Shown here: piece after piece, positions 11,648 through 57,146 of the stretch
Numbering within the stretch: position 1 is the first letter of the stretch
Layout of the letters: each line of letters starts with the position of its first letter
Notes under the pieces: model-generated
Seen by the model: the letters and a program-made list of their open reading frames with translations, nothing else
Database searches by the model: none
Told to the model about the DNA's origin: nothing
Translations under genes and position numbers: made by a program
Virus record (IMG/VR): IMGVR_UViG_3300042559_000515
Span: 1-64,000 of that record
Strand: one strand, 5' to 3'
DNA: 64,000 nucleotides
From: a virus

Positions 11648-13336
11648 TTATTCTTCGTTAGGTACACGGCGCTGGGCGAACCTTGCTCCGTATGCCTTTG
11701 ATACAAGTTGATTAACCATCTGCTCTTCCATGGGGCCAACGACAGGACCTGGCATTGGACCGCCATCAGAAGAACCGTTTGCTGAAGACACATTAGCACC
11801 TCCAGCAGACACCGTTTCAGGACCAGTAGGTCCAGGAACCATTCCAGTTGCAAGCATTACTGCCATCTGGATTTGTGCGTTCAACATGTCAAGAGCGCCT
11901 TGGTCCATGGCGTCATCTTGCAATTCCTCAAAGATTTCATCCATCTTCTCGTTCGGGAATTCCTCACCGAGGAGACGAAGTGCACCACGCTTGGACTCAA
12001 GACCAAGGGCCATCTTGGCTTGGACCTCATTAAGTTTAATAAGTTGGTCAACAGGCAGAGGCTCAGGCCAATGCACCATTGTCTTATAAGTGTTGGGGTC
12101 AGCAGGGTCCAACTGTGTGAGTTGGTCACGCTCTGGCATTGCAGATTGTGATGGGTCATACATAAGCATTTGAGGCTCAAATACAGCCGCTGTACGAATA
12201 ATGATTTCGTTAATGCGTTCAAGACCCTTAGTGAAGTGAACTTTCTTCATGTTGAAGCGGTTCATCATCGGCTGATACTGAATAGCCAAGGCGGTACCAG
12301 AGGTGTTAGATACAGGCTGGAATTGACCAAGTGCAGTTTCAGGTACACCAGTAATTTCATGCATGGTGCGCTTGAGGAAACCAATAAACTCTAAGGCACC
12401 TGACATCTCACCACGAGATTCAAGGTTAAAGACGCTGGCGTCCTTGGGGAGACCCGCCCAAACCTTTTTAGGTCCACGCTCCAACTGCGAAGCCTTAGCA
12501 CCAGTGATGATAGTGACAGGTGCGGCGTGGTAGTTGATGATGTCAGAAACTTCAACCATCTTCTCGTTGAGTTCACGGTTCAGGGGGATGATATCCCAGA
12601 TGTCTGATTGACCCCATGGAGAAGAAGAAATTGAAGTGTTTGGAATGTGGACAATAGGAATGGTGCCCAAAGCGTTGGGATATTCGTCAACCAATTCATC
12701 ATTAATAAACTGTTGGATAGTTTCTTCAGTGAGGATTTCGGTAAAGGTATAAACCTGGCGGGTTCCTTCAGGAGAGGTACCCCAGAAGCGATACTTCAAT
12801 TTAAAACGAAGCAAGCGGTCACGGTCATGTGGGTGATACTCAGGGAAACAATGAGCAGGGTTCAAAGGAATAATACGGATGCGTCCCTCAATGGGTACAC
12901 CGATGGAGTCAACATAAGGTTCCTCGTAAGCAACCTTCACAAAACAGTCACCAGTGACCGAAGCCAACTGACCCATTTCCCACATTACATAGTGTTTGTG
13001 GTTGTGGTTTTCCCAAACCTGATGAAGGAGTCGGGGAATAATTGCGCTGTTTGCTTCTGGTGTACGGAACTGGATTCCCTTACCAAAGCAGAAGTTGGTG
13101 ATGTAGTCCGAGAATGTACGGACATAGTTCATGTAGAACTGAGACTCACCCATCTCACGGCGGTACGACCAATGATGTCCAAGATACCAAGCCCACGCAG
13201 CAGCGTAACGGTTTAGACGGGGTCCATGTACCTCAAACTCTTCGTCTGCAAGTTCAACTAAACCAAGTGGGGAAATGGCGACTGTTAAGTCGCTTGATGA
13301 TGCACGATAAGACGGTGACCAGAAGTCCATTGCCAT
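11648..13336 (-). CDS. Portal protein (SPP1 gp6-like)
   Basis: 562 aa; G.IPIVHIPN, WGQSDI, SGTAL motifs; synteny. Confidence 0.9.
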   Translation of the reverse strand: MAMDFWSPSYRASSSDLTVAISPLGLVELADEEFEVHGPRLNRYAAAWAWYLGHHWSYRREMGESQFYMNYVRTFSDYITNFCFGKGIQFRTPEANSAIIPRLLHQVWENHNHKHYVMWEMGQLASVTGDCFVKVAYEEPYVDSIGVPIEGRIRIIPLNPAHCFPEYHPHDRDRLLRFKLKYRFWGTSPEGTRQVYTFTEILTEETIQQFINDELVDEYPNALGTIPIVHIPNTSISSSPWGQSDIWDIIPLNRELNEKMVEVSDIINYHAAPVTIITGAKASQLERGPKKVWAGLPKDASVFNLESRGEMSGALEFIGFLKRTMHEITGVPETALGQFQPVSNTSGTALAIQYQPMMNRFNMKKVHFTKGLERINEIIIRTAAVFEPQMLMYDPSQSAMPERDQLTQLDPADPNTYKTMVHWPEPLPVDQLIKLNEVQAKMALGLESKRGALRLLGEEFPNEKMDEIFEELQDDAMDQGALDMLNAQIQMAVMLATGMVPGPTGPETVSAGGANVSSANGSSDGGPMPGPVVGPMEEQMVNQLVSKAYGARFAQRRVPNEE

Positions 13337-16168: not shown

Positions 16169-16378
16169 TTATTTTTTAAGATGCCAATCAATGTGGTCAT
16201 CTAGTCGTACAGAGACATGGTCTACAGAAGTTTGCACCTTGTCTAGACGAGTCATTACTTGACCGTGGTCCTCAGTGTTGGACTTCTTTAGTGATTTAAA
16301 TTCTTTAATTGCCACACCAAACAGTCCGCCCACTGTGGTGATACTGGCAACAATAATTGTGGCGAGTGCTGGGTCCAT
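16169..16378 (-). CDS. Single-TM coiled-coil protein (holin/lysis-associated candidate)
   Basis: N-terminal TM then N..DHG.V..RLD...RLDDHIDWH. Confidence 0.65.
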   Translation of the reverse strand: MDPALATIIVASITTVGGLFGVAIKEFKSLKKSNTEDHGQVMTRLDKVQTSVDHVSVRLDDHIDWHLKK

Positions 16379-17286
16379 TAGATATAGGGCTGTCCTCTAC
16401 GAGGGGGTCCTTGTTTCATGACCCTTCCATCTGGCCTGGTTCTCTCAATCTGCTTTCCTACAAGCCATTTAACTGCTTGCGCCCCTGGAAGTGTGATTCC
16501 ATGACCTTCAGTGAAACTTCTGATGCGTGATGATTTATTGAGGTCAGGAAGAATAGAACGCATCACTTCTTCATGGTCTTCATAGCGTGTTGTACCACCA
16601 CGCTTTAAAGATGCAGTACCGATACCTCGTGGGTCTTGCCATGGGCGCATCATATTGGCAGTCATATCAGACTCACGACCATCTACTGTCATTACTGAAG
16701 TGTCACCAGCAATGTTCCTATAGAAAGAGTTTACTTTTGGTGAACTACTGCGGGGTAGAATTTCTTCGGGGTCTGCACCTTCTAGAATATTGAGTGCTTT
16801 TACAACATTTGTATCAGATGATACAGATATAGATGGTGCCCGTTCCTTCATCATTGCCTGAACTTCAGGAATACGGCCTGTAGGCTTCAATAAATTTTCA
16901 GGCACTTCTTCACCACGAGTACGAAAATCAGTGGAAAGTGCTCTATTGATGACTCTATTTGACTCTGACTGACGGTGGCTTTCACGAACCATTGCCCGTT
17001 CTGCTGGTGTCATAGATGCAATTTCTGCAAAAGCATTAATGTTGTTGCTATCAAAGTCCATGTTTGGTGATACAGCGGCGACAATTCCAGAACCATGTGC
17101 TGGACTAATGCCAATGTCTAATGAACCTTTTCGTGTGGCTTCTTGTACACCTGGGTACCAAAGAAGTCCTTCTTGTAAAGTTTCATCTGAAGCACCAAGA
17201 ATCAAGTCTTTGGAACGCTTGCGAGCATCAGCAAATTGTTCCGCATTGATTTTAGGGTTTACATCAAAAAAAGGAAATTTTGCCAT
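16378..17286 (-). CDS. Hypothetical protein, possible HhH-GPD glycosylase-like fold
   Basis: WY...GIVAAVSP, PKVNSFYRNIAG, MTVD, QAVKW pattern. Confidence 0.55.
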   Translation of the reverse strand: MAKFPFFDVNPKINAEQFADARKRSKDLILGASDETLQEGLLWYPGVQEATRKGSLDIGISPAHGSGIVAAVSPNMDFDSNNINAFAEIASMTPAERAMVRESHRQSESNRVINRALSTDFRTRGEEVPENLLKPTGRIPEVQAMMKERAPSISVSSDTNVVKALNILEGADPEEILPRSSSPKVNSFYRNIAGDTSVMTVDGRESDMTANMMRPWQDPRGIGTASLKRGGTTRYEDHEEVMRSILPDLNKSSRIRSFTEGHGITLPGAQAVKWLVGKQIERTRPDGRVMKQGPPRRGQPYI

Positions 17287-32693: not shown

Positions 32694-32924
32694 CTAGAGA
32701 ACTAGGCTAGGTGAACCACCACCATACATTCCATAATGCATAGCGAATGCAATTCTGTCTTCTTTCCAACCCAGCAAAAGAAGTGTCTTAATAGCGTCTG
32801 CTCTAGATGAAACAGTTGCAACGATGTGCTTTTTCATAAGAGACGCCGCTTCTTCGGGGGTAACAGCGTCATCTGCTCCAGGTGAGTAATAAAGATGTGG
32901 TCTAATCACATGTACCGTTGACAT
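32694..32924 (-). CDS. Hypothetical protein
   Basis: AGGAG SD; coupled to upstream gene. Confidence 0.6.
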   Translation of the reverse strand: MSTVHVIRPHLYYSPGADDAVTPEEAASLMKKHIVATVSSRADAIKTLLLLGWKEDRIAFAMHYGMYGGGSPSLVL

Positions 32925-33526
32925 TAATAATCTCCTACTACGAATTTTGCTCTAAGTGGTTCGCCTTTTATGAGGGCGGCAGTTGCTCGGTGATGTCCAC
33001 CAAGCAGTCGCAGTTCCCCTGTGTGTGGATGAATATACACGAAGGGTGTTTGATTCCCAACATCCTCATGGTCAGCATGGAGGTCTCCATGTTGTCCGTG
33101 CTCTAAATAGTGTAGAACTCCACTAGAAGTAACGGAAGGCTGACTCCCGCTGAGAAATCGTGGGTCAAATTCACGAAGGTTATCTACTGATGGCTTGTCA
33201 TGAATTACCCTACTTACCAACGAAGGGTCATAACTAAATCCGCCCTTATTTTTGGTTGATTGACTCCAGGGGATACCAGTTTTAAGACTGGCGGGTTGAC
33301 CTTCTCGTACCCATGGGCTTTCTTCATAGTCAGGATTACGCCTACGAGAGTAATCAAGTTCTGCTGGTGAAGTAGGTTTACCTTGACCAAACAAAGGGTA
33401 AATGCTTTTTGACCCAAATAAGTTTTCTAGGCGCTTTGCGTAGTTTGCCTGATGATATGGGTGGCTCAGGTAAGCCATGTCAATGTATTCACCAAGTTGT
33501 GTTTCACTAAGCCTGTTGGTTGACAT
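32924..33526 (-). CDS. ParB/Sulfiredoxin-like protein
   Basis: SQP.V...TPFVY...LLGGHHRATAA; start MSTNRLSETQL preceded by TAAGGT. Confidence 0.7.
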   Translation of the reverse strand: MSTNRLSETQLGEYIDMAYLSHPYHQANYAKRLENLFGSKSIYPLFGQGKPTSPAELDYSRRRNPDYEESPWVREGQPASLKTGIPWSQSTKNKGGFSYDPSLVSRVIHDKPSVDNLREFDPRFLSGSQPSVTSSGVLHYLEHGQHGDLHADHEDVGNQTPFVYIHPHTGELRLLGGHHRATAALIKGEPLRAKFVVGDY

Positions 33527-33577
33527 GGGCGTAACCTTATCCCTTAGTAAATACTTTCGCAACATTAGAGGTGTTCA

Positions 33578-33703
33578 TCAATAAACTCCCTCGCAACAAG
33601 CATCCCTAGCGCCGCAAGATTCGCACTTATAATGAGCGTGTTCAGGACGCATTTTGCCCCCACACCAAACACATTGAGTAGAGCAGTCTTTGGCATCACT
33701 CAT
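33578..33703 (-). CDS. Small Cys-rich zinc-finger peptide (41 aa)
   Basis: Hand translation MSDAKDCSTQCVWCGGKMRPEHAHYKCESCGARDACCEGVY*. Confidence 0.7.
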   Translation of the reverse strand: MSDAKDCSTQCVWCGGKMRPEHAHYKCESCGARDACCEGVY

Positions 33704-33855
33704 GACACCACGAGGATGATGTCCCAGGAACTAGCCTCAATCTGGATAGCCTTTGACAATACTATGTTCTTATAACCACTAGCCTTGGCAAGGTTTGTTG
33801 CAATCTTGATGGCGTCACTGATTAAAACCGTGTGCACAGGATAGGTTACAAACAT
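33700..33855 (-). CDS. Small hypothetical protein (51 aa)
   Basis: MFVTYPVHTV...IILVVS*; ATGA overlap with next gene. Confidence 0.55.
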   Translation of the reverse strand: MFVTYPVHTVLISDAIKIATNLAKASGYKNIVLSKAIQIEASSWDIILVVS

Positions 33856-33869
33856 AATTTAAAAAAAAA

Positions 33870-34133
33870 TTATTGCTCTGTGCGTGAGATGCCAGAGTCA
33901 GACGCAAGCAACTGTCCTGACCACTCGTTGGCGTTACAGTCTTGACAATTGTCTAAATCTTTACAATTACAGCGTGATGTAATTGCATTGATAAATGCCG
34001 CCTGATTGCGCTGTCCTCGTGAAAGGAAGCCACCGCCACCTCCGAGGTTAATACCCTCAATTGCAGGTCGTTCCATTTCGCTACGGCTTGGTGTATCTGG
34101 ACCGCTACCCATGCCTGATTTTTTCTTTGCCAT
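33870..34133 (-). CDS. Hypothetical protein with CxC..CxxC
   Basis: Leaderless TATAAT 6 nt before ATG. Confidence 0.65.
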   Translation of the reverse strand: MAKKKSGMGSGPDTPSRSEMERPAIEGINLGGGGGFLSRGQRNQAAFINAITSRCNCKDLDNCQDCNANEWSGQLLASDSGISRTEQ

Positions 34134-34166
34134 ACAGAAATTATACCTTAATAGCCAATGGGGGGT

Positions 34167-34568
34167 TTATGACCCTTTTCTAGGGTCAATACCTAAGTTG
34201 AATAAGTGCTTACTGTCATCCCCATACTCAATAGGGATAAACATGTCAGGGTTGATGCTAAATGCCGAAGCGACTCGGTGGTGACCATCAGAGATAACTG
34301 TTTCATCATTCTCTCGGCTGAAGAACTCAATATTGACAGGGTTTTGGACACCCTTTTCTTTGATTGAATCATGGAGGTTAAGGTTGTCATACATTTTTGC
34401 GTAAGAAATAGGGTCCATAGACTCTTCAAGTTTTTCATTTAACAATTCTGGATTTTGTGACATAGGACGCCACTCTTCCAAATCATCACCTGCTGGCATG
34501 TCCATTAACTCACGGGCAGTCATAAATAACTTGAGTTGTTTTGGATTGAGGTGATTTTTAGCCGCCAT
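34167..34568 (-). CDS. ParB/Sulfiredoxin-like protein
   Basis: L.DSIKEKGVQNPV...ISDGHHRVASA. Confidence 0.8.
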   Translation of the reverse strand: MAAKNHLNPKQLKLFMTARELMDMPAGDDLEEWRPMSQNPELLNEKLEESMDPISYAKMYDNLNLHDSIKEKGVQNPVNIEFFSRENDETVISDGHHRVASAFSINPDMFIPIEYGDDSKHLFNLGIDPRKGS

Positions 34569-35419
34569 TAGTAATCCTCTAAACCAGGAAGTTTGGGTTG
34601 TGAATTATTATTTGGCAAATCTTCTTGAGAAAATTGAGTAGACATCTTAGAACGGCGATTTCTTCTAAGTTCGTCCCTTAGTGCGCTTCTTGCCACACGC
34701 ACATCTTCATGTGATACCTCACCACGAAGGTAAATGCCCATGTGCTTTTCTTCAAAAGGTGTGACAATCTTTGGCTCAAACATAGTTGTGTTTACTTGTT
34801 CACTTCCAGGATTGTCTTCATTAGGTTGAATTAATCCACGCTCTACAGCGTGCTTAGCAATACGACTGCTATGAGGGGACAAGTTTGCTGAGGGGATAAT
34901 GTCAGAGTTTAAGTGGTCTTGCTTAATGATTGACATCAATGTTGGAAAAGTGTGTGTTGCATGCTTATCAAAGTACGCATTAGAAATTTCTAGAGTACCC
35001 CTCTGTTCCCCAAACAGTTTCCCAGTATTAACCATAGGGTGATTTTTAATAACCTCTACTGCCCTACTAAAACCCTCTGGGTCTGTCCTATGTGTAGCCT
35101 CGTCATTGATGACGCTACTGATGGAAGAAACATCTTCTTCAGACATGTTGGGGTCATTGAAGTCACTGAGGTGTTTGATTAGTTCATGAGAGACACCAGT
35201 GGCTCTACTTAGGTGACGGGTAGGTGCGTACTTACCCCGTTCGTTTCCATTGTCCCAGATAGGTCCGTTAAAACCTGGGTTATGGATTACGCCTACTTCA
35301 CCCCAAGCGTGGCCTGCAAGAGCACCGCTTCCAACTAAAGCGTCACTGTCAGTTGCAACAGCACGGTAACTCTTCCAACCTGCACCAAAGTTACCGTCTC
35401 CCCTAAAGTACCTACCCAT
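34568..35419 (-). CDS. Island paralogue 1 (divergent), unknown function
   Basis: Shares TG.S, LF, SANLSPHSSRI, RGL...DNP..E..NT and V..AR with 36440-38957. Confidence 0.75.
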   Translation of the reverse strand: MGRYFRGDGNFGAGWKSYRAVATDSDALVGSGALAGHAWGEVGVIHNPGFNGPIWDNGNERGKYAPTRHLSRATGVSHELIKHLSDFNDPNMSEEDVSSISSVINDEATHRTDPEGFSRAVEVIKNHPMVNTGKLFGEQRGTLEISNAYFDKHATHTFPTLMSIIKQDHLNSDIIPSANLSPHSSRIAKHAVERGLIQPNEDNPGSEQVNTTMFEPKIVTPFEEKHMGIYLRGEVSHEDVRVARSALRDELRRNRRSKMSTQFSQEDLPNNNSQPKLPGLEDY

Positions 35420-35649
35420 TACTTAGACTTCTTATCTACTTTATTAAAGACATCGTTGATTTCGTCAACGGTAAGTTTTCCATCATCCATGAAGGCACGA
35501 GCAAGACCTTCAACTACAAATGAGACACCGCCAATACCTGCCATCAGTACGGCTTTCCATAGTGGAATACCAGCAATAGCGCCTGCGCCAACAACGGAAA
35601 GACCAGTGGCTGCAAAAGTGGCAAGAATACGGAGAAGAATCTGTTTCAC
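35419..35649 (-). CDS. Two-TM holin-like protein
   Basis: Hydrophobic helices then DDGKLTVDEIN; leaderless TAAAAT. Confidence 0.7.
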   Translation of the reverse strand: MKQILLRILATFAATGLSVVGAGAIAGIPLWKAVLMAGIGGVSFVVEGLARAFMDDGKLTVDEINDVFNKVDKKSK

Positions 35650-35664
35650 AGACTCTATTTTACA

Positions 35665-35838
35665 CTAACCGCCGTTGCGGTAAAAGCCACGACCAACAAG
35701 GTTGACCGATGGGGTGCCGAAGACCTTTTTCATCTGTTCTTGGCACTCTGGGCAGATAACTACTGGCTCTTCGGCATGAATTGACCGACTCTCCTCGTGG
35801 GAGTGGTCATTTGAGCATTTGTACTGATATGTAGCCAT
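35665..35838 (-). CDS. FmdB-family zinc ribbon protein (57 aa)
   Basis: Hand translation MATYQYKCSNDH...CPECQEQMKKVFG.P.V...GRGFY. Confidence 0.85.
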   Translation of the reverse strand: MATYQYKCSNDHSHEESRSIHAEEPVVICPECQEQMKKVFGTPSVNLVGRGFYRNGG

Positions 35839-36021
35839 TTAGTCGTCTTCAAATTTATTTTTCTGGAACAGGTACGCAGGGTAGGAATCCATAAAGTCAT
35901 CCGTCTCGTTTTCACGGCGCTCACGAAGAATCTGTTTCTGCTTGCGCTTTTTGTGCTCATTGTCAAACTGTGGACTTAATTTCTTTTGACGAAATTCGTT
36001 GAGGTCTACTACATCACCCAT
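35839..36021 (-). CDS. Small hypothetical protein
   Basis: MGDVVDLNEFRQKKLSPQF; TAGAAT upstream. Confidence 0.6.
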   Translation of the reverse strand: MGDVVDLNEFRQKKLSPQFDNEHKKRKQKQILRERRENETDDFMDSYPAYLFQKNKFEDD

Positions 36022-36035
36022 ATGTTCTTATTCTA

Positions 36036-36440
36036 TCAATAAGTGTCGTAGTGGTAGTCTGAGTCGTCAAAGTGTGGCAAATCCACTTTATGGTCTGCCT
36101 GTGTTTGGTAGTCATAGTAATTAGCATAACCAGGACCGACTTCATAATTTACAGGAATGAACTGGTCTGGGTTCAAACGATGTTGTGCGGCAATACGGTG
36201 GTGCCCGCCAACAATATACTGGTCCTTAGGGTGTAGAGAAACAGGAATCTGTACACCTGTCTCCTTGATGCTGTCCATCAAACCATTTTGTTCCGCTTCA
36301 TCAGCCTTGCGTTCCCACAGTTCATCTGTGGATTCACCAGGAAGGTAGTCACCGTCAATTGGTTCAAAATCTTTGACGATTTCTCGTGCAGTCATAAACA
36401 GTTTTAACTGATTTGGATTTTCTTGTTTTTTCCGAGCCAT
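36036..36440 (-). CDS. ParB/Sulfiredoxin-like protein
   Basis: LMDSIKETGVQIPV...IVGGHHRIAA; paralogue of 34167-34568. Confidence 0.8.
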   Translation of the reverse strand: MARKKQENPNQLKLFMTAREIVKDFEPIDGDYLPGESTDELWERKADEAEQNGLMDSIKETGVQIPVSLHPKDQYIVGGHHRIAAQHRLNPDQFIPVNYEVGPGYANYYDYQTQADHKVDLPHFDDSDYHYDTY

Positions 36441-37267
36441 TACACGAATCCTTCCATTCCAGGCAAAAACTGGTCACTCAACCCTTTTCTAGTGACAGGA
36501 GTAGTGTTTCTAATCTTAGGCTTGCGGAGCATCTCACGAACATCCTGTCGTGCGGCACGCACCATATCAGGGTGAATGGCTTCATCGGGTTGGTCATTAC
36601 CCCACACATTGTTAGCAAACTCACTACCTACAGAACGATTATGTTGTCTGATGGTGTTTGTTACTTCTGCGTTAGGGTTTGCGGGGTCTGTTTCAACTAA
36701 ACCCTTATCTAGTGCTGTTTTAGTCAATTTACTACTATAAGGAGATAACGAACCAGACGCAATTATTTTTTCTGCACCTAAATCACGCTTGGCAAGGGCG
36801 GCAAGGGTAATAGCAGTGTGGGGCATACTTGGGTCCGCAACCATGTTGTCAATTTGTATAGACGATGGTATTCGTTCAAATAGAGTTTCTGGTTGAAAGT
36901 ATTTGTTACCCTCTATGTGTGGCTTCATTGCCTCTTTATCAAAACCCCCACTACGAAGAGCATGTAGTATCTGGTTTGCGGAATCTTCGTGACCAGTCCA
37001 GTCATCTTCTGGAATACTTTCAATTTTGTCCGAAATGTGTCTTAGATAATTATTACTTAAACCTGTCACATTGTATGGGTCACGGTAATTAGTTTTTGCA
37101 CTATTATCAAAAGGGACAACATACTTTGATGGCGAGTGTGACACACTGATACTTGCGTATGGTCGGCGCTTTTCTACACCACTAAGTGTTTCTACCTCAA
37201 ATTCATTACCTACAGCGTTATATGTAGACATGTCTTCTTCATGGTTTTTAAAGTATTCAATTGCCAT
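36440..37267 (-). CDS. Island paralogue 2, unknown function
   Basis: Ends GLSDQFLPGMEGFV. Confidence 0.8.
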   Translation of the reverse strand: MAIEYFKNHEEDMSTYNAVGNEFEVETLSGVEKRRPYASISVSHSPSKYVVPFDNSAKTNYRDPYNVTGLSNNYLRHISDKIESIPEDDWTGHEDSANQILHALRSGGFDKEAMKPHIEGNKYFQPETLFERIPSSIQIDNMVADPSMPHTAITLAALAKRDLGAEKIIASGSLSPYSSKLTKTALDKGLVETDPANPNAEVTNTIRQHNRSVGSEFANNVWGNDQPDEAIHPDMVRAARQDVREMLRKPKIRNTTPVTRKGLSDQFLPGMEGFV

Positions 37268-38100
37268 TAGACAAAACCTTCCATGCCTGGGAGGAACTGG
37301 TCGCTAAGTCCTTTGGCTGTCACTGGCTTGGGATTGCGCTTGCGACCAAGAATCTCACGCACAGCCTCTTTACCTCGGATAACACTTGTATCAGGGATAG
37401 GTGCTCCTTTTTCACGGATAACATCTGCGTATTCACTTGACATGGTGTGACGAAGTTGTCTTTGCTCCTCATAGTCACCAGCGGTGCTTTCTGCGCTTGG
37501 GTTACCTGAATGGGCACTAACGGGTAGCCCACGCTTAATGGCGTTTTGTGTCAGTTTGCTACTGAACTTTGTCAGTGAACTATCTGCCACAAATGGCGCA
37601 CGGTTCCCCTCATCGTAGGCAATACCAAGAAGGTTGATACCTGCGGCATTCATGGAGGGGTCAGAGTACATTCCGTTAATGTATGTCTTTGCAGGTTTTG
37701 ATTCATAAAACAAATGTTCTGGTGTAATGTGGGGGTTGGTGCGTGCCTGCTCCACCGCCCAATCCATTGTCTTACCGTGGCTTGGATATCCTCTAAGAAC
37801 ACCAAGCGCACGCATAGCATCCATTTTTTCAGGGTTATCGGCTATATCTGGTTCGTCAAGTAATGAACGATACCTTTTGGTCAGGTATTCGGGGTGGAGA
37901 CCAGTCTGACCACTGTCATCAGCGTAATTAGGACCTTGTTCATCATCAAAAGTAGGGGTGTACTCTGCAAACTGGTGATATGTACCTACATTTGCATTCG
38001 GCACCGCACCAGTCTCAGGTTTTGGTGTACCTAATGCTCTGTAAAACGACTGAAACCCACCAGGGTAGTGTTGGCGAGATTCAAGAATATATTCAGGCAT
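37267..38100 (-). CDS. Island paralogue 3, unknown function
   Basis: Ends GLSDQFLPGMEGFV. Confidence 0.8.
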   Translation of the reverse strand: MPEYILESRQHYPGGFQSFYRALGTPKPETGAVPNANVGTYHQFAEYTPTFDDEQGPNYADDSGQTGLHPEYLTKRYRSLLDEPDIADNPEKMDAMRALGVLRGYPSHGKTMDWAVEQARTNPHITPEHLFYESKPAKTYINGMYSDPSMNAAGINLLGIAYDEGNRAPFVADSSLTKFSSKLTQNAIKRGLPVSAHSGNPSAESTAGDYEEQRQLRHTMSSEYADVIREKGAPIPDTSVIRGKEAVREILGRKRNPKPVTAKGLSDQFLPGMEGFV

Positions 38101-38957
38101 CAGACAAAGCCTTCCATACCAGGTAGAAACTGAGCGCTGAGACCCTTCTTTGTGACAGGCGTGTTATTTCGGGCTGGTGTGCCACGCTGACCACGAAGCC
38201 ATCCACGGATGTCATCCCTAGCACCCTTTACTTCTTCTGGAGAAATTGGTGTCTCTGGCTGGTCCATACCCCAAGGGTTATCTTGTCTTTTTACCCTGAT
38301 AGTCCGCTTGCTCTTGTCAATGTCATTTGTAATCTCTGCTTCGGGGTTATCCCGATGTGTTTCAACTGGCAGACCTCTGGTTACAGCATTCCTAACCAAT
38401 TGGCTACTAAATGGAGATAGGTCATCAGATGCAATTATCTTTTCTGCCTTTTGGTCACGCTTTGCAATAGCGGACAAAGTCATGGCTGTGTGAGCCATAC
38501 TTGGGTCAGACACCATATTTGTAATCTCTATAGACGATGGAACCTCTTCAAACAAAGTTTCTGGTTGAAAATGGGGGTTACTCCGCATCTGACCCCGTAC
38601 ATATGCCTTACTGACAGGGTCTGACATGTGCATGATGCCGATGGTGTGCATGGCATCGTCATCATAGCCAGTCCAGTTATCTTCACCTTTTTTTGTAAGT
38701 TTGTCTGCCAGATGACTTACATAATCATCGCTGAGACCAGTGTCTGTGTAGGAGTCACCACCAATATTTGTGTAGGGTACGACAAACCTTCCTGGCCTGT
38801 GCTTTACATTAATTGTTGCAAAAGGTCGCTCTTGTAAGTCACCTGGGTCATCAGGAAGTCCAAAGAATGGGTCAGGCTCTACATCAACAGGCTTTCCTAA
38901 TGCGGTGTAGGAAAAATTACCTTCGTAATCTGTGTTCTTAGAGTAATCAATTGCCAT
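38100..38957 (-). CDS. Island paralogue 4, unknown function
   Basis: Ends GLSAQFLPGMEGFV. Confidence 0.8.
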   Translation of the reverse strand: MAIDYSKNTDYEGNFSYTALGKPVDVEPDPFFGLPDDPGDLQERPFATINVKHRPGRFVVPYTNIGGDSYTDTGLSDDYVSHLADKLTKKGEDNWTGYDDDAMHTIGIMHMSDPVSKAYVRGQMRSNPHFQPETLFEEVPSSIEITNMVSDPSMAHTAMTLSAIAKRDQKAEKIIASDDLSPFSSQLVRNAVTRGLPVETHRDNPEAEITNDIDKSKRTIRVKRQDNPWGMDQPETPISPEEVKGARDDIRGWLRGQRGTPARNNTPVTKKGLSAQFLPGMEGFV

Positions 38958-39358
38958 TACGAGTTCTTTAGACGGCGGTTGACGAAATCTGCCTGCTCTT
39001 GAGGTAAATCAGGTCCAGCGGTTGGTCTACGAGTTGTGACAAGGTTTCCTGACTCATATGCCTTCATAGCAGCGCCCATCAGTGCAGAACCAACGCCTTT
39101 TCCACGGTGCTCTGGCTCAACTTCAAGACTTTCAACTGAGTTTGGTGCAAGAGTGGGGTTCATGGAGTAATAAGCATCACCCGTTCCATGCAGTACCAGA
39201 CGACCCATCACATCTTCGCTTGTGTAACTCCCACCATCATTAGGAAGTGCAGTCAATGTGGTGTACATAGGGTAGCGACCGTCCTCAAAAGGTAGTCGTT
39301 CATCAGAATGCTCTAATGAAATTTGAAACTGATTGAGGTTGAGATGCTTCTTAGCCAT
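38957..39358 (-). CDS. GNAT-family acetyltransferase
   Basis: VESLEVEPEHRGKGVGSALM (motif A, RxxGxG). Confidence 0.85.
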   Translation of the reverse strand: MAKKHLNLNQFQISLEHSDERLPFEDGRYPMYTTLTALPNDGGSYTSEDVMGRLVLHGTGDAYYSMNPTLAPNSVESLEVEPEHRGKGVGSALMGAAMKAYESGNLVTTRRPTAGPDLPQEQADFVNRRLKNS

Positions 39359-39417
39359 ACACTTAGTTTACTATGGTCAAACGGCGAATTTTTTTACTCC
39401 GTTCAGCGCCCTAGTTG

Positions 39418-39687
39418 TCAGCGCCGCCTGTTTCGCTGTTCTGCATTTGCTTGACGAGTCTGGATACCCAACTTACGGGCGACCGCTACCTCACGATGGA
39501 ACTGCTCTGGGTTGTGTTGTGCCATCCGTGACATGTGTTGCCAGTGTGTACGGTCCATGTTCCAGCCCGTAGCCGCCTCTACACCTTCTTTTAGGAGTCC
39601 AAAGCCAATCCTCTTGGGGTGTTTTTGCAACTCATTGGAAATAATGTTCTTATTTTCCTGGTGTTCTTCGTCAGAAATCTTTGCCAT
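39418..39687 (-). CDS. Hypothetical protein
   Basis: GAGGAG SD before MAKISDEE. Confidence 0.65.
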   Translation of the reverse strand: MAKISDEEHQENKNIISNELQKHPKRIGFGLLKEGVEAATGWNMDRTHWQHMSRMAQHNPEQFHREVAVARKLGIQTRQANAEQRNRRR

Positions 39688-39691
39688 AGCC

Positions 39692-40018
39692 TTAACTCCT
39701 CTTTTGAGTCCAGTGTTCACCTGCACGGTGCTGATTAATGACTCCTACACCGTCCTTGTGGGTGGCAACATCTTCCAAAATGTCTCCAGAGGGGCTGAAA
39801 ACGCTACGAAGACCACCAACTGGGGTGTGTTCTAGTCCATAACCGTCTACTGCAACGAATCCAACACCCCATTTAGCGTCAGAATCGGCTTCATAAGGGG
39901 AAAGACCTGCATCATGGAGCACATCATGACCAATAAAGCGTTCTCCAGCGACCGTCATCTTCTCACGGCGGTGTGCAGACTTCAGTAATGCGTTGAATTG
40001 GTCGGGGTTAAGTGCCAT
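39692..40018 (-). CDS. Hypothetical protein
   Basis: Starts MALNPDQF; leaderless TAAACT. Confidence 0.7.
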   Translation of the reverse strand: MALNPDQFNALLKSAHRREKMTVAGERFIGHDVLHDAGLSPYEADSDAKWGVGFVAVDGYGLEHTPVGGLRSVFSPSGDILEDVATHKDGVGVINQHRAGEHWTQKRS

Positions 40019-40027
40019 TTACCTAGT

Positions 40028-40219
40028 TTACTTCAAGATTCCCCATGTGGGATTAGGTTGGAACCTGATGTCATTGGACTCAAAATGCTTGACAATACCC
40101 GACTCAAGCACGACAACCCAGCAGGTGTTAGCGCCCCAGCCATAATCAATGAGTAAAAGTGCTACCCCATCACCGAGAGGGGTAGAAACCTCTAGTGGCT
40201 GTTGGAATTCGTGAATCAA
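40028..40219 (-). CDS. Small beta-rich phage protein
   Basis: P..V.TPLG.G.A.LLIDYG...N..WVV pattern. Confidence 0.7.
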   Translation of the reverse strand: MIHEFQQPLEVSTPLGDGVALLLIDYGWGANTCWVVVLESGIVKHFESNDIRFQPNPTWGILK

Positions 40220-40627
40220 TTAGTCTCGTTCGTGGAGATAGGTCTCATCTTCACGATGCACATGTGCGGGAAGGCGTTCCGACTGCGCCTCTGGGTCGTT
40301 CACAGCCTCTTTGTAGGTCACAGGGACCATCCATGAGGGGTCAATGTCATGTGCGGCGGCAATACGGTGTGCACCATTGACAATACTGGTCTGACCACGG
40401 CTCCTGCCAAGACGAATGGGGTTGACCATCCCCTCTTTACGCAGGCTCGTATGCAGTCCTGACTTATATGCTTCATCGCTTTTGCGATTCCAGAATAATT
40501 CTTCAGAAGGATGACCAGACCTAGTGACATCTTTTGTGGTCATTTCAAGGTCTGAGCCTTCAAGTTCTTCACGGAGCATGCTGGCTGGCATAAAGAGTTG
40601 TTCGTTGAGGTGATGCCAAGTAGCCAT
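40220..40627 (-). CDS. ParB/Sulfiredoxin-like protein
   Basis: GLHTSLRKEGMVNPI...IVNGAHRIAAA; leaderless TATACT. Confidence 0.8.
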   Translation of the reverse strand: MATWHHLNEQLFMPASMLREELEGSDLEMTTKDVTRSGHPSEELFWNRKSDEAYKSGLHTSLRKEGMVNPIRLGRSRGQTSIVNGAHRIAAAHDIDPSWMVPVTYKEAVNDPEAQSERLPAHVHREDETYLHERD

Positions 40628-40740: not shown

Positions 40741-40770
40741 AGGGTACCACTTAACCATGGGGGGTGTCAA
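40741..40770 (-). promoter_or_regulatory. Sigma70/SigA-type promoter facing the accessory island
   Basis: TTGACA-18 nt-TACCCT with extended -10 TG. Confidence 0.5.
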
Positions 40771-40780
40771 GCCCTGAGCA

Positions 40781-40853
40781 TATGACATTCGTCACATGTG
40801 CCCATCGTCACACCCCCGACCATGTGACCTTCGTCACAGTGACCTTTGTCACA
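40781..40853. promoter_or_regulatory. Four tandem CRP/FNR-type boxes (TGTGA-N6-TCACA)
   Basis: 40781-96, 40797-812, 40823-38 (perfect) and 40838-53. Confidence 0.7.
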
Positions 40854-40875
40854 CCCCGTTTACTTGACATCCAGG

Positions 40876-56320: not shown

Positions 56321-56728
56321 TTACTCCAACAACCCATACCTAACTGTTGATATGTCAATCACTGTTTCATTCATGTACGGAATAACACTCATGTTCACAT
56401 TCACATTCTCCGTACTATCTTTGTGAGCGCTAGAACAAAGTTCGCAGTCACAGCCCTGTCGGTAACGGAGCCATGACCCGTGTGGCTTCAGAAGGGACTG
56501 CTTGCCATCCTTCATGGGCTGTCGCTCCTTAGGTGTGAGACCGCCCCACATGCCCCACTTCTCGTTTATGCCATCGTTGAGGCACTCTTTCCACAGAGGG
56601 CAACAACGGCACACTTCTCTCGCAATGGAGTAGTACTGCTCTGGTGCGTCCGCCTCCATGGGTGGATACCAAAACACATTGTTCCTCTTATGGCAGAGGG
56701 CTTCTAATCGCCAGTCTTCATCAATCAT
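56321..56728 (-). CDS. whiB: WhiB-family protein with extra C-terminal HG..Y..GCxC..C module
   Basis: W..EALC, C..CP...EC, GMWGG.TP.ER, then HGSW.RY.QGCDC.LC. Confidence 0.88.
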   Translation of the reverse strand: MIDEDWRLEALCHKRNNVFWYPPMEADAPEQYYSIAREVCRCCPLWKECLNDGINEKWGMWGGLTPKERQPMKDGKQSLLKPHGSWLRYRQGCDCELCSSAHKDSTENVNVNMSVIPYMNETVIDISTVRYGLLE

Positions 56729-56777
56729 TAATTAATCCATGTTGTGTTTCGTACACTAGAAAGGTAGGTTTATTCCT

Positions 56778-57146
56778 ATGACAACCAATACAAATACCCA
56801 GTCCCTGTCCACCCTCGTTGAAGAGCGAATCCGACTCAAGGCTGAGTTGGACAATCTCACTCAGCGTCTCAAAGACTTTGACGAACTCGTCATCGCTGAA
56901 CTCCAAAGCCAAAATCTCACGAAGTTTGAGACCGCCGTTGGCAAGGTCAATCTCGTCCAGAGCAACACTGTTGTTTGGAATGACGAGGTTCTCAAGGAAC
57001 TTCTCAAGCCAGTTCAGTGGAAGCGAATCGTCATTGAGAAGGTTGACAAGTCCCGTCTTGACGCCGAACTCGTGGTCGGTCGTATTGACGAGAGCCTCGT
57101 TGAAGTGGCTCGCTCCATCAAGCAGTCCAAGCCGTTCTTGCGCTAA
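56778..57146 (+). CDS. Hypothetical coiled-coil protein
   Basis: Isolated plus-strand gene; AAGGTAGG SD; codon style of the early block. Confidence 0.75.
   Translation: MTTNTNTQSLSTLVEERIRLKAELDNLTQRLKDFDELVIAELQSQNLTKFETAVGKVNLVQSNTVVWNDEVLKELLKPVQWKRIVIEKVDKSRLDAELVVGRIDESLVEVARSIKQSKPFLR

Follow-up and report, generated by a model that had tools for sequence, protein, structure and literature searches.

Encapsulins load their cargo through short terminal peptides that are carried by unrelated enzymes and that bind the inside of an HK97-fold shell. In the T-even phages the internal proteins form a diverse set of which the capsid targeting sequence (CTS) is the sole common feature (PMC3012670); in T4 this is a terminal peptide of about ten residues, common to the otherwise diverse and fast-evolving proteins IPI-III and Alt. 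A further precedent is provided by the polyvalent proteins, where ADP-ribosyltransferase (ART), RimI-like GNAT and ParB/sulfiredoxin (Srx) domains are described for head-packaged proteins that are injected with the DNA, with P1 DdrB and T4 Alt as examples (PMC5512222). Here we describe a short peptide tag, with a core close to L-[SN]-P-x-Q-F, that recurs at the termini of small proteins encoded by an island of the virus record IMGVR_UViG_3300042559_000515. The DNA analysed, referred to below as the window, is the first 64 kb (64,000 nucleotides) of this 83,630-bp record. The window genome encodes a sheath, tube, portal, terminase and two WhiB genes, and the phage is a contractile-tailed actinophage of lake origin, whose major capsid protein (MCP) is of the N4-gp56 type and about 60% identical to the MCPs of the Streptomyces phages BRock and GiJojo.

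Overall, we favour reading the tag as an uncleaved virion-loading signal for injected effectors, a reading that we hold tentatively and at a little short of an even call. The tag would mark a fast-changing set of small modifying enzymes (GNAT, Arr-like ART and ParB/Srx-like NTPase or nuclease) for uptake into the procapsid, the tag docking there on a conserved component of the head. The pattern L-[SN]-P-x-Q-F fits a helix N-capping box with a hydrophobic staple, in which case its Leu and aromatic residue would form one small hydrophobic knob for a receptor pocket; no cleavage would be needed, and the enzymes would arrive in the next host alongside the DNA, ready to act as effectors. A broader proposition, held with somewhat more reserve, is that a cleavage-independent code of two motifs (LSxxQF at either end, QLPGME at the C-terminus) may enable a lineage of abundant lake actinophages to make a virion-loaded, injected effector of any small enzyme, with cysteine-free tagged modules replacing covalent polyvalent fusion; the phage would in effect have divided a polyvalent protein among a dozen modules, each with its own tag, and the peptide would serve actinophage capsids as a portable packaging tag. 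A portable terminal signal, avoidance of cysteine, folds of the polyvalent type and the T-even precedent are, taken together, best fitted by proteins that travel out of the reducing cytoplasm inside the virion and reach the next cell together with the DNA; a receptor for the tag, and the loading and injection of its carriers, are what we infer.

The likeness to the T4 CTS goes further than a terminal peptide, since the cargo is free of cysteine (T4 IPI, IPII and IPIII have none) and the T4 cargo includes an ART. The two differ, however, in that the T4 peptide reads MKTYQEFIAE, against ...[DE][NH]L[SN]PxQF here, with only a Q near an F in common; in that the present tag is used at C-termini too, together with a second motif; in that the window genome yielded neither a prohead protease nor a cleavage site; and in that the host is actinobacterial and packaging is putative. 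With polyvalent proteins such as P1 Dar/DdrB the carriers share the repertoire of ART, RimI-like GNAT and ParB/Srx DNase/NTPase, which that source gives as proposed or shown to be packaged and injected (PMC5512222). The polyvalent proteins are giant fusions of 2-15 domains, whereas the carriers here are separate proteins of 80-290 aa with a common terminal peptide; a fusion of at least two unrelated domains does not occur in the window, where the open reading frames (ORFs) are separate, 60-285 aa long and each with its own start and stop. Encapsulins, for their part, are cellular compartments and not virions, the consensus of their peptides differs from that of the tag, and any binding of the tag to the N4-gp56-type MCP of this phage is putative. 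The peptide is not described in the literature that we searched, a search that was not exhaustive and did not cover subscription journals. Set against a CTS-like cargo tag, what appears to be new is its sequence, its use at either end, the second C-terminal motif, the absence of any sign of cleavage, the polyvalent-type enzyme cargo and the strict exclusion of cysteine.

The island comprises 18 ORFs (2,543 aa). It is flanked on one side by an early regulatory region and on the other by the genes for the head, the terminase, the tail fibres and an FN3 protein, and every flagged gene is read from the minus strand, in a run from 40627 down to 32694. All eleven peptides listed in the original prediction were found on minus-strand ORFs at the positions it gave, as follows:

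40220..40627, minus strand: ParB/Srx-like protein of 135 aa, N-terminal tag MATWHHLNEQLF, no cysteine.
39692..40018, minus strand: protein of 108 aa that falls in no known family, tagged MALNPDQF at its N-terminus, no cysteine.
38957..39358, minus strand: GNAT acetyltransferase of 133 aa, N-terminal tag MAKKHLNLNQF, no cysteine.
38100..38957, minus strand: paralogue of 285 aa with a predicted GNAT-like fold, C-terminal tail ...PVTKKGLSAQFLPGMEGFV.
37267..38100, minus strand: predicted GNAT-like paralogue of 277 aa, C-terminal tail ...PVTAKGLSDQFLPGMEGFV, differing synonymously from its paralogues.
36440..37267, minus strand: predicted GNAT-like paralogue of 275 aa (structure modelled), C-terminal tail ...PVTRKGLSDQFLPGMEGFV.
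36036..36440, minus strand: ParB/Srx-like protein of 134 aa, N-terminal variant MARKKQENPNQLKLF, its start overlapping the stop of the 275-aa gene.
35839..36021, minus strand: 60-aa protein with KLSPQF in its N-terminal part, at residues 15-20.
34568..35419, minus strand: divergent predicted GNAT-like paralogue of 283 aa with a split C-terminal tail, KMSTQF, a 13-residue spacer and KLPGLEDY.
34167..34568, minus strand: ParB/Srx-like protein of 133 aa (structure modelled), N-terminal tag MAAKNHLNPKQLKLF.
32924..33565, minus strand: longer ParB/Srx-like protein, a 213-aa ORF, N-terminal tag MSTNRLSETQL.

The true start of the last of these is probably M14 at 33526, giving 200 aa, as the homologue P0156 starts there.

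The strict pattern, L[NS]x(1-2)Q[FL], stands at a terminus in eight of the eleven in the gene set used; KLSPQF matches it too, but its ORF falls outside the greedy gene set, and KMSTQF and ENPNQL are one-letter variants. The 152 heuristic ORFs of the whole genome, 26,280 aa in all, contain 11 strict sites, where 2000 shuffles average 1.76 +/- 1.34 and reach 9 at most; no more than 25 residues from an end there are 9, where the shuffles average 0.50 +/- 0.69 (maximum 4); nine of the 11 genome sites fall in the 18 ORFs of the island. The prediction had spoken of about 11 otherwise different proteins, and while the tag is indeed on eleven, they make up only five sequence families: four ParB/Srx-like paralogues (25-45% identity), four paralogues of 275-285 aa (26-51%), one GNAT, the 108-aa protein and the 60-aa protein. 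Collapsed in this way, and with a pattern that was fitted post hoc, the window by itself is suggestive and not compelling, and the tag was therefore tested on sequence that had played no part in its discovery.

Relatives were fetched with two tagged families as bait: the 280-aa family (the 275-285 aa paralogues) gave L001-L003 (IMG/VR) and L022-L030 (metagenomes), and the ParB-like family gave L032-L082. Both bait families are thus present by construction in the relatives' loci, whereas the other carrier families are not. An IMG/VR search with a QFLPGME DNA pattern returned 18 stretches, of which the 14 loci from other contigs proved to be chance matches once translated, and a scan of genome contigs with a ParB-like pattern found no relative. 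In the pooled, de-duplicated set of 1311 distinct ORFs (201,388 aa, from the window genome and 62 related loci), the motif occurs in the first 26 aa of 147 ORFs and the last 30 aa of 45, with 225 sites overall; the corresponding values are 1.8 +/- 1.3, 2.4 +/- 1.5 and 12.9 +/- 3.6 in 300 shuffles, and 1, 4 and 10 in the reversed sequences. The strict pattern, unchanged, has 209 sites in L033-L082 (1133 ORFs, 168,261 aa), 147 of them in the first 20 residues, 18 in the last 25 and 44 elsewhere. A test that assumes no pattern gives the same picture, with Q[FLWM] starting at ORF positions 7-12 in 42, 43, 15, 64, 60 and 27 ORFs, where 7.07 would be expected at each position. Terminal enrichment beyond chance, as the original prediction had it, is upheld in the genome and in the related loci, and the shuffles of both the whole genome and the 1311-ORF set rule out a chance origin of the motif.

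The same holds for the idea of a portable signal on unrelated families. When proteins were clustered by BLAST on their cores, with both ends trimmed, N-terminal carriers were spread over 49 of the 701 groups and C-terminal carriers over 15. Further carriers in close relatives include a 153-aa GNAT-like protein (MTRRKPLSPDQF), ART-like proteins of 82-121 aa (…HLHGKQFWHGS, MSLNKHQFKTYYHGT), an 85-aa protein (MALSPDQF) and a 132-aa protein (MMNRNNLSSQF). Homologues of the window's 108-aa protein in L003 and L025 retain the tag, those of the 60-aa protein in L001, L022 and L030 have RKLS[KS]QF, and five homologues of the window GNAT, at 38-54% identity, keep the KKHLNLNQFQ start unchanged. The window GNAT itself matches Acetyltransf_1 (24.9 bits against a cut-off of 20.7). 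Among 28 tagged proteins of related loci, nine match GNAT families (five reaching the curated cut-off), two match ART families (Arr-ms, scoring 25.6 bits where the cut-off is 25, and a weak PARP match) and 17 match nothing.

The two bait families carry the tag in contrasting structural settings. A profile of the four window ParB-like copies has 1198 representatives at E <= 0.001 among 1.84 billion sequences, and the best 150 of these mostly start M[SA]AS[DN]HL.P.QL.MFMTA.EL, 44 of them matching the strict pattern and 67 a slightly relaxed one. In the AlphaFold model of the protein at 34167..34568 (mean predicted local distance difference test, pLDDT, 87.9), residues 11-120 are folded at about 95 and the first ten stand at about 65; QLKLFMTAREL forms a strand and a helix of the domain. 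The top Foldseek rows for this model are KorB, ParB, sulfiredoxin, Noc and a serine kinase, with weak E values of 0.007-0.6 and a probability of up to 0.99, although the rows agree with one another; the small window proteins have PHROG matches, with Pfam ParBc below threshold. G94, H96 and R97 are invariant in 79 ParB-like sequences, the GxxR-type motif reading [DG]GHHR here, and by predicted fold and by this motif the four small window proteins belong to the ParB/Srx superfamily. The 280-aa family has 35 database homologues. In 16 homologues, with 34-88% identity to the window protein over their bodies, the tail RN..PVT.KGLS.QFLPGMEGFV does not vary, and PVTxKGLSxQFLPGMEGFV is also conserved over a wider set of 36 at 21-88%; in a divergent branch (P0005, P0016, P0020, P0028) the tail is split into KMS.QF, a spacer and KLPGLEDY. 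The model of 36440..37267 (pLDDT 84.2) is folded to residue 247, with residues 250-275 at about 49, and the predicted disorder of the tail is what would be expected of a motif that binds in trans. Foldseek found nothing at E <= 0.001 for this model. An exhaustive structural aligner gave mostly GNAT acetyltransferases in its top 50 rows, at middling Z scores of 5.3-7.3 over about 100 aligned residues; we call the predicted fold GNAT-like.

Aligned on the Q, the N-terminal tags give the logo M-[SA]-A-x-[DE]-[NH]-L-[SN]-[PG]-x-Q-[FLW], with 0.7-1.9 bits of information at positions -9 to -3, in addition to the Q and position +1, and 0.14-0.33 bits at +2 to +8; at 556 internal Q[FLWM] sites no pattern precedes the Q (<=0.06 bits). 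The motif had been said often to follow basic residues, which does not hold generally, as acidic and N/H residues precede the Leu in the logo. At the level of codons, all six Leu codons and both Ser codon boxes are used at motif positions, CAA and CAG stand at 52/47, and three window paralogues of the 280-aa family have synonymous differences throughout their tails. With all synonymous codons in use, selection must act on the peptide and not on a DNA or RNA signal, and a DNA-level signal (a recombination linker, a ribosome-binding site or a downstream box) is ruled out for the core. As an aside, four N-termini (40603-40614, 39337-39347, 34545-34553 and 36001-36009) code [HD]-L-N identically, as CAY/GAC CTC AAY, perhaps by chance; CACCTC matches the 3' tail of 16S rRNA.

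Near some C-termini the L-[SN]-x-Q-F core is followed by a second motif, (Q)LPG[ML]E, which 32 ORFs carry exactly 7-8 residues before their end, LSxQF being missing from some of these. Its longer form is (Q)LPG[ML]E[GDN][FYK], the window sites are 34568-34590, 36440-36465, 37267-37292 and 38100-38125, and its M-E-G codons overlap the Shine-Dalgarno sequence of the next gene. The same motif appears as QLSLPGMEG at the N-terminus of the ParB-like representative P0180. Both motifs are found together in a cysteine-free family of 520-580 aa, with an N-terminal LGxQF and a C-terminal QLPGME (G001 70538-73588; L048:5661-7304; L039:12247-15722); this family heads the structural operon of the relative G001, and belongs to no Pfam or PHROG family. 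A search of the ESM Atlas with a tagged family of 547 aa yielded only leads under 0.9.

The logo also raises the question of whether the tag is an address at all. A helix N-capping box with a hydrophobic staple opens a helix with the pattern h-[STDN]-x-x-[EQD]-h. L-[SN]-P-x-Q-F fits this rule, and the tag could be a structural start motif that stabilises small domains or helps their expression, spread by recombination among neighbouring cassettes. The ParB-like model does place a one-turn helix at residues 8-11, at a pLDDT of only about 65, and the tags abut the first strand of the ART, GNAT and ParB folds. The motif, however, also sits on a C-terminal tail that is predicted to be disordered and is better conserved than any other part of its protein; the pattern is missing at internal Q[FLWM] sites; the codon diversity indicates long purifying selection, not recent copying; and a structural start motif leaves the exclusion of cysteine, described below, unexplained. 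We consider this explanation very improbable.

Tagged ORFs contain 35 cysteines in 28,093 aa (0.125%), and 90.6% of them have none, against 1.42% cysteine in untagged ORFs. Restricting the comparison to families in at least three loci, which drops most spurious ORFs, gives 0.088% in the tagged against 1.53% in families without a tagged member. Cysteine alone is far from parity, with a ratio of 0.10 where every other residue lies at 0.74-1.64, and the difference stands with one value per family (24 tag-bearing against 58 others; Mann-Whitney p = 1e-4). There are 3 cysteines in the 20,967 aa of the 150 ParB-like representatives (<=50% mutual identity), none in the 9,760 aa of the 280-aa family, and none in any tagged protein of the window. 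Cysteine exclusion is described as an adaptation to oxidising surroundings (PMC2823432). The core virion proteins of the window genome are themselves poor in cysteine (MCP 1/358, scaffold 0/267, sheath 1/541, portal 3/562, four connector-region proteins 0), and the enzymes of the same block are richer (terminase 6/521, phosphoesterase 5/379, glycosyltransferase 9/354). In T4, likewise, IPI, IPII, IPIII, gp2 and gp29 have no cysteine, and most of the neighbouring non-virion enzymes have 1-9.

Several other genes deserve mention beside these. The untagged genes of the island are the cysteine-rich ones, namely 33578-33703 (a cysteine-rich protein of 41 aa), 33870-34133 (87 aa, 4 Cys) and 35665-35838 (an FmdB-type zinc ribbon); they are kept across related islands, as is a holin-like membrane protein (35419-35649). 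A DUF7178 protein without cysteine (16378-17286), encoded in the head module between the genes for the terminase and the portal, starts ...NPKINAEQF, a relaxed form of the tag; this protein has no homologue in the four genomes compared, and was set aside. Mimicry of the scaffold was rejected as well, as the MVEQF of the window scaffold is not kept in the relatives G001 or G008.

An HslV-family peptidase (MTTIVAVQ...; phrog_1040, E 2e-26 to 3e-31; Pfam Proteasome) adjoins the portal gene in G001 (39015-39647; L087:19015-19647) and G008 (56501-57139), and HslV/proteasome-like Thr peptidases lie within a few kb of tags in 15 tag-rich loci, for example L059:9406-9954. The tag might then be a processing or turnover signal, recognised or cut after the F, L or W by this peptidase of the relatives, or by a host protease, so as to time the activity or removal of the enzymes. 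The residue after the Q is F, L or W, in keeping with chymotrypsin-like specificity. The window genome, however, carries the tags and lacks a peptidase of this kind (best tblastn E 2.3), cleavage after Q-L would break into the folded ParB-like domain, and a cut at the C-terminal site would take off a nonapeptide only. We give this possibility little credence.

We are similarly sceptical of a non-capsid phage partner, such as a hub of ParB/Srx-like proteins with which the tagged proteins would assemble into hetero-oligomers by way of the peptide they share. Each tag-bearing locus seen has ParB-like genes; they are translationally coupled to 280-aa genes through stop/start overlaps at 36440 and 34568, with the same adjacency in L003 and L024; and the ParB-like N-terminus is kept across the 1198 representatives, including in the relative G003, where nothing else is tagged. 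Part of this co-occurrence arises by construction, however, ParB-like or 280-aa genes having been the bait, and P0180, with a QLSLPGMEG N-terminus of its own, fits ParB-like proteins as cargo better than as receptor. Nor would such a partner account for the lack of cysteine.

The most probable of the rivals is docking on a host hub. Here the tagged enzymes would be early host-takeover or counter-defence proteins, made after infection, and the peptide would recruit them all to one conserved piece of host machinery (RNA polymerase, ribosome or replisome, for instance). GiJojo has homologues of the window's MCP (60%), portal (53%) and scaffold (34%), and yet none of its 174 ORFs (34,386 aa) is tagged at the N-terminus; its six strict sites are internal or in an ORF opposite the strand of annotated genes. 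Tags that are missing despite homologous head genes fit a signal tied to the host and not to the capsid. The island borders on the early regulatory region and comes with a TTGACA-N18-TACCCT site and operator-like repeats of its own, it is a separate and differently oriented unit in G001, and a tag that abuts the catalytic domain would put the enzyme directly on its target. On the other hand, near-total cysteine exclusion is left unexplained by host docking, and the specific candidate of this kind, the bacterial beta-clamp binding motif (QL[SD]LF / QLxLxL), fails. The likeness lies in a Q with a hydrophobic residue after it at the very N- or C-terminus, with two window proteins reading QLKLF. 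The conserved positions here precede the Q, however, the residues from +2 to +8 being close to uninformative, and the QLxMF of the ParB-like proteins, like QLKLFM, is part of a strand and helix inside the folded core at a pLDDT of about 95, so that we reject the beta-clamp motif. As a whole we regard host docking as unlikely, although it is a reading to be taken seriously.

The co-orientation of the island with the structural genes, which the prediction had noted, is not conserved, since the island of G001 diverges from its structural operon. Two features lie upstream of the window island:

40741..40770, minus strand: promoter-like TTGACA-N18-TACCCT, some 110 nt ahead of the start codon of the first island gene.
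40779..40857, no strand assigned: four copies of a 16-18 nt palindrome, TGTGAC-N4-GTCACA, operator-like, directly upstream of the promoter-like site.

From the former we infer a promoter of the sigma-A type, and the palindromes look like an operator array that would control the leftward unit; in a scan for consensus promoters and terminators, the counts were not above those in shuffles.

Several of these observations weigh against the virion-loading reading, and should be gathered here. Because the G001 island is transcribed away from the structural operon, and the window island has a promoter-like site and operator-like palindromes of its own, late co-expression with the head genes is not implied. 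GiJojo has homologous head genes and no N-terminal tags, and the high-GC relative G003 (MCP 64%) has the tag on its ParB-like protein only. A receptor for the tag was not identified, and none is evident among the 17 window genes that are present in the tag-bearing G001 and G008 but not in GiJojo or G003. No prohead protease was recognised in the window genome, no protease family among its head-module proteins, and no cleavage site; the tag of the ParB-like proteins runs directly into the folded domain without a linker, unlike the cleaved tag of T4. The cysteine criterion, too, is imperfect, as T4 Alt has 3 cysteines in 682 aa and the non-virion proteins e.6 and segB have none.

The tag marks a sub-lineage, and this does not separate a capsid receptor from a host receptor. 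Seven of the 14 relatives' records searched hold this MCP lineage; a blank in most of the other seven says little, because these are 34-68% complete, and G013, the sole complete record among them, has no tags in its locus L081. No cultured phage with either bait family was found, the four queries having no match in 50,697 phage records. Separately, the MCP gene of the relatives G006 (71130-72224) and G012 (12056-13240) matches in two pieces split by an insertion, possibly an inserted domain or an intein; the split match of G012 lies inside one 570-aa open frame.

If the partner of the tag is a host machine, a single hub would be attacked at once by acetyl-, ADP-ribosyl- and ParB-type enzymes. 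If, as we tentatively favour, the tag is a loading signal, it would offer a short peptide with which to try the packaging of foreign proteins into actinophage heads, and many small tagged modules would be able to take the place of giant polyvalent proteins. The strict exclusion of cysteine would then be a second, independent bioinformatic mark of such cargo, one that may be applied to other phages. Taken as a loading signal, the tag would permit the injected effectors of a large uncultured phage lineage, one that infects the dominant actinobacteria of fresh water, to be listed from sequence.

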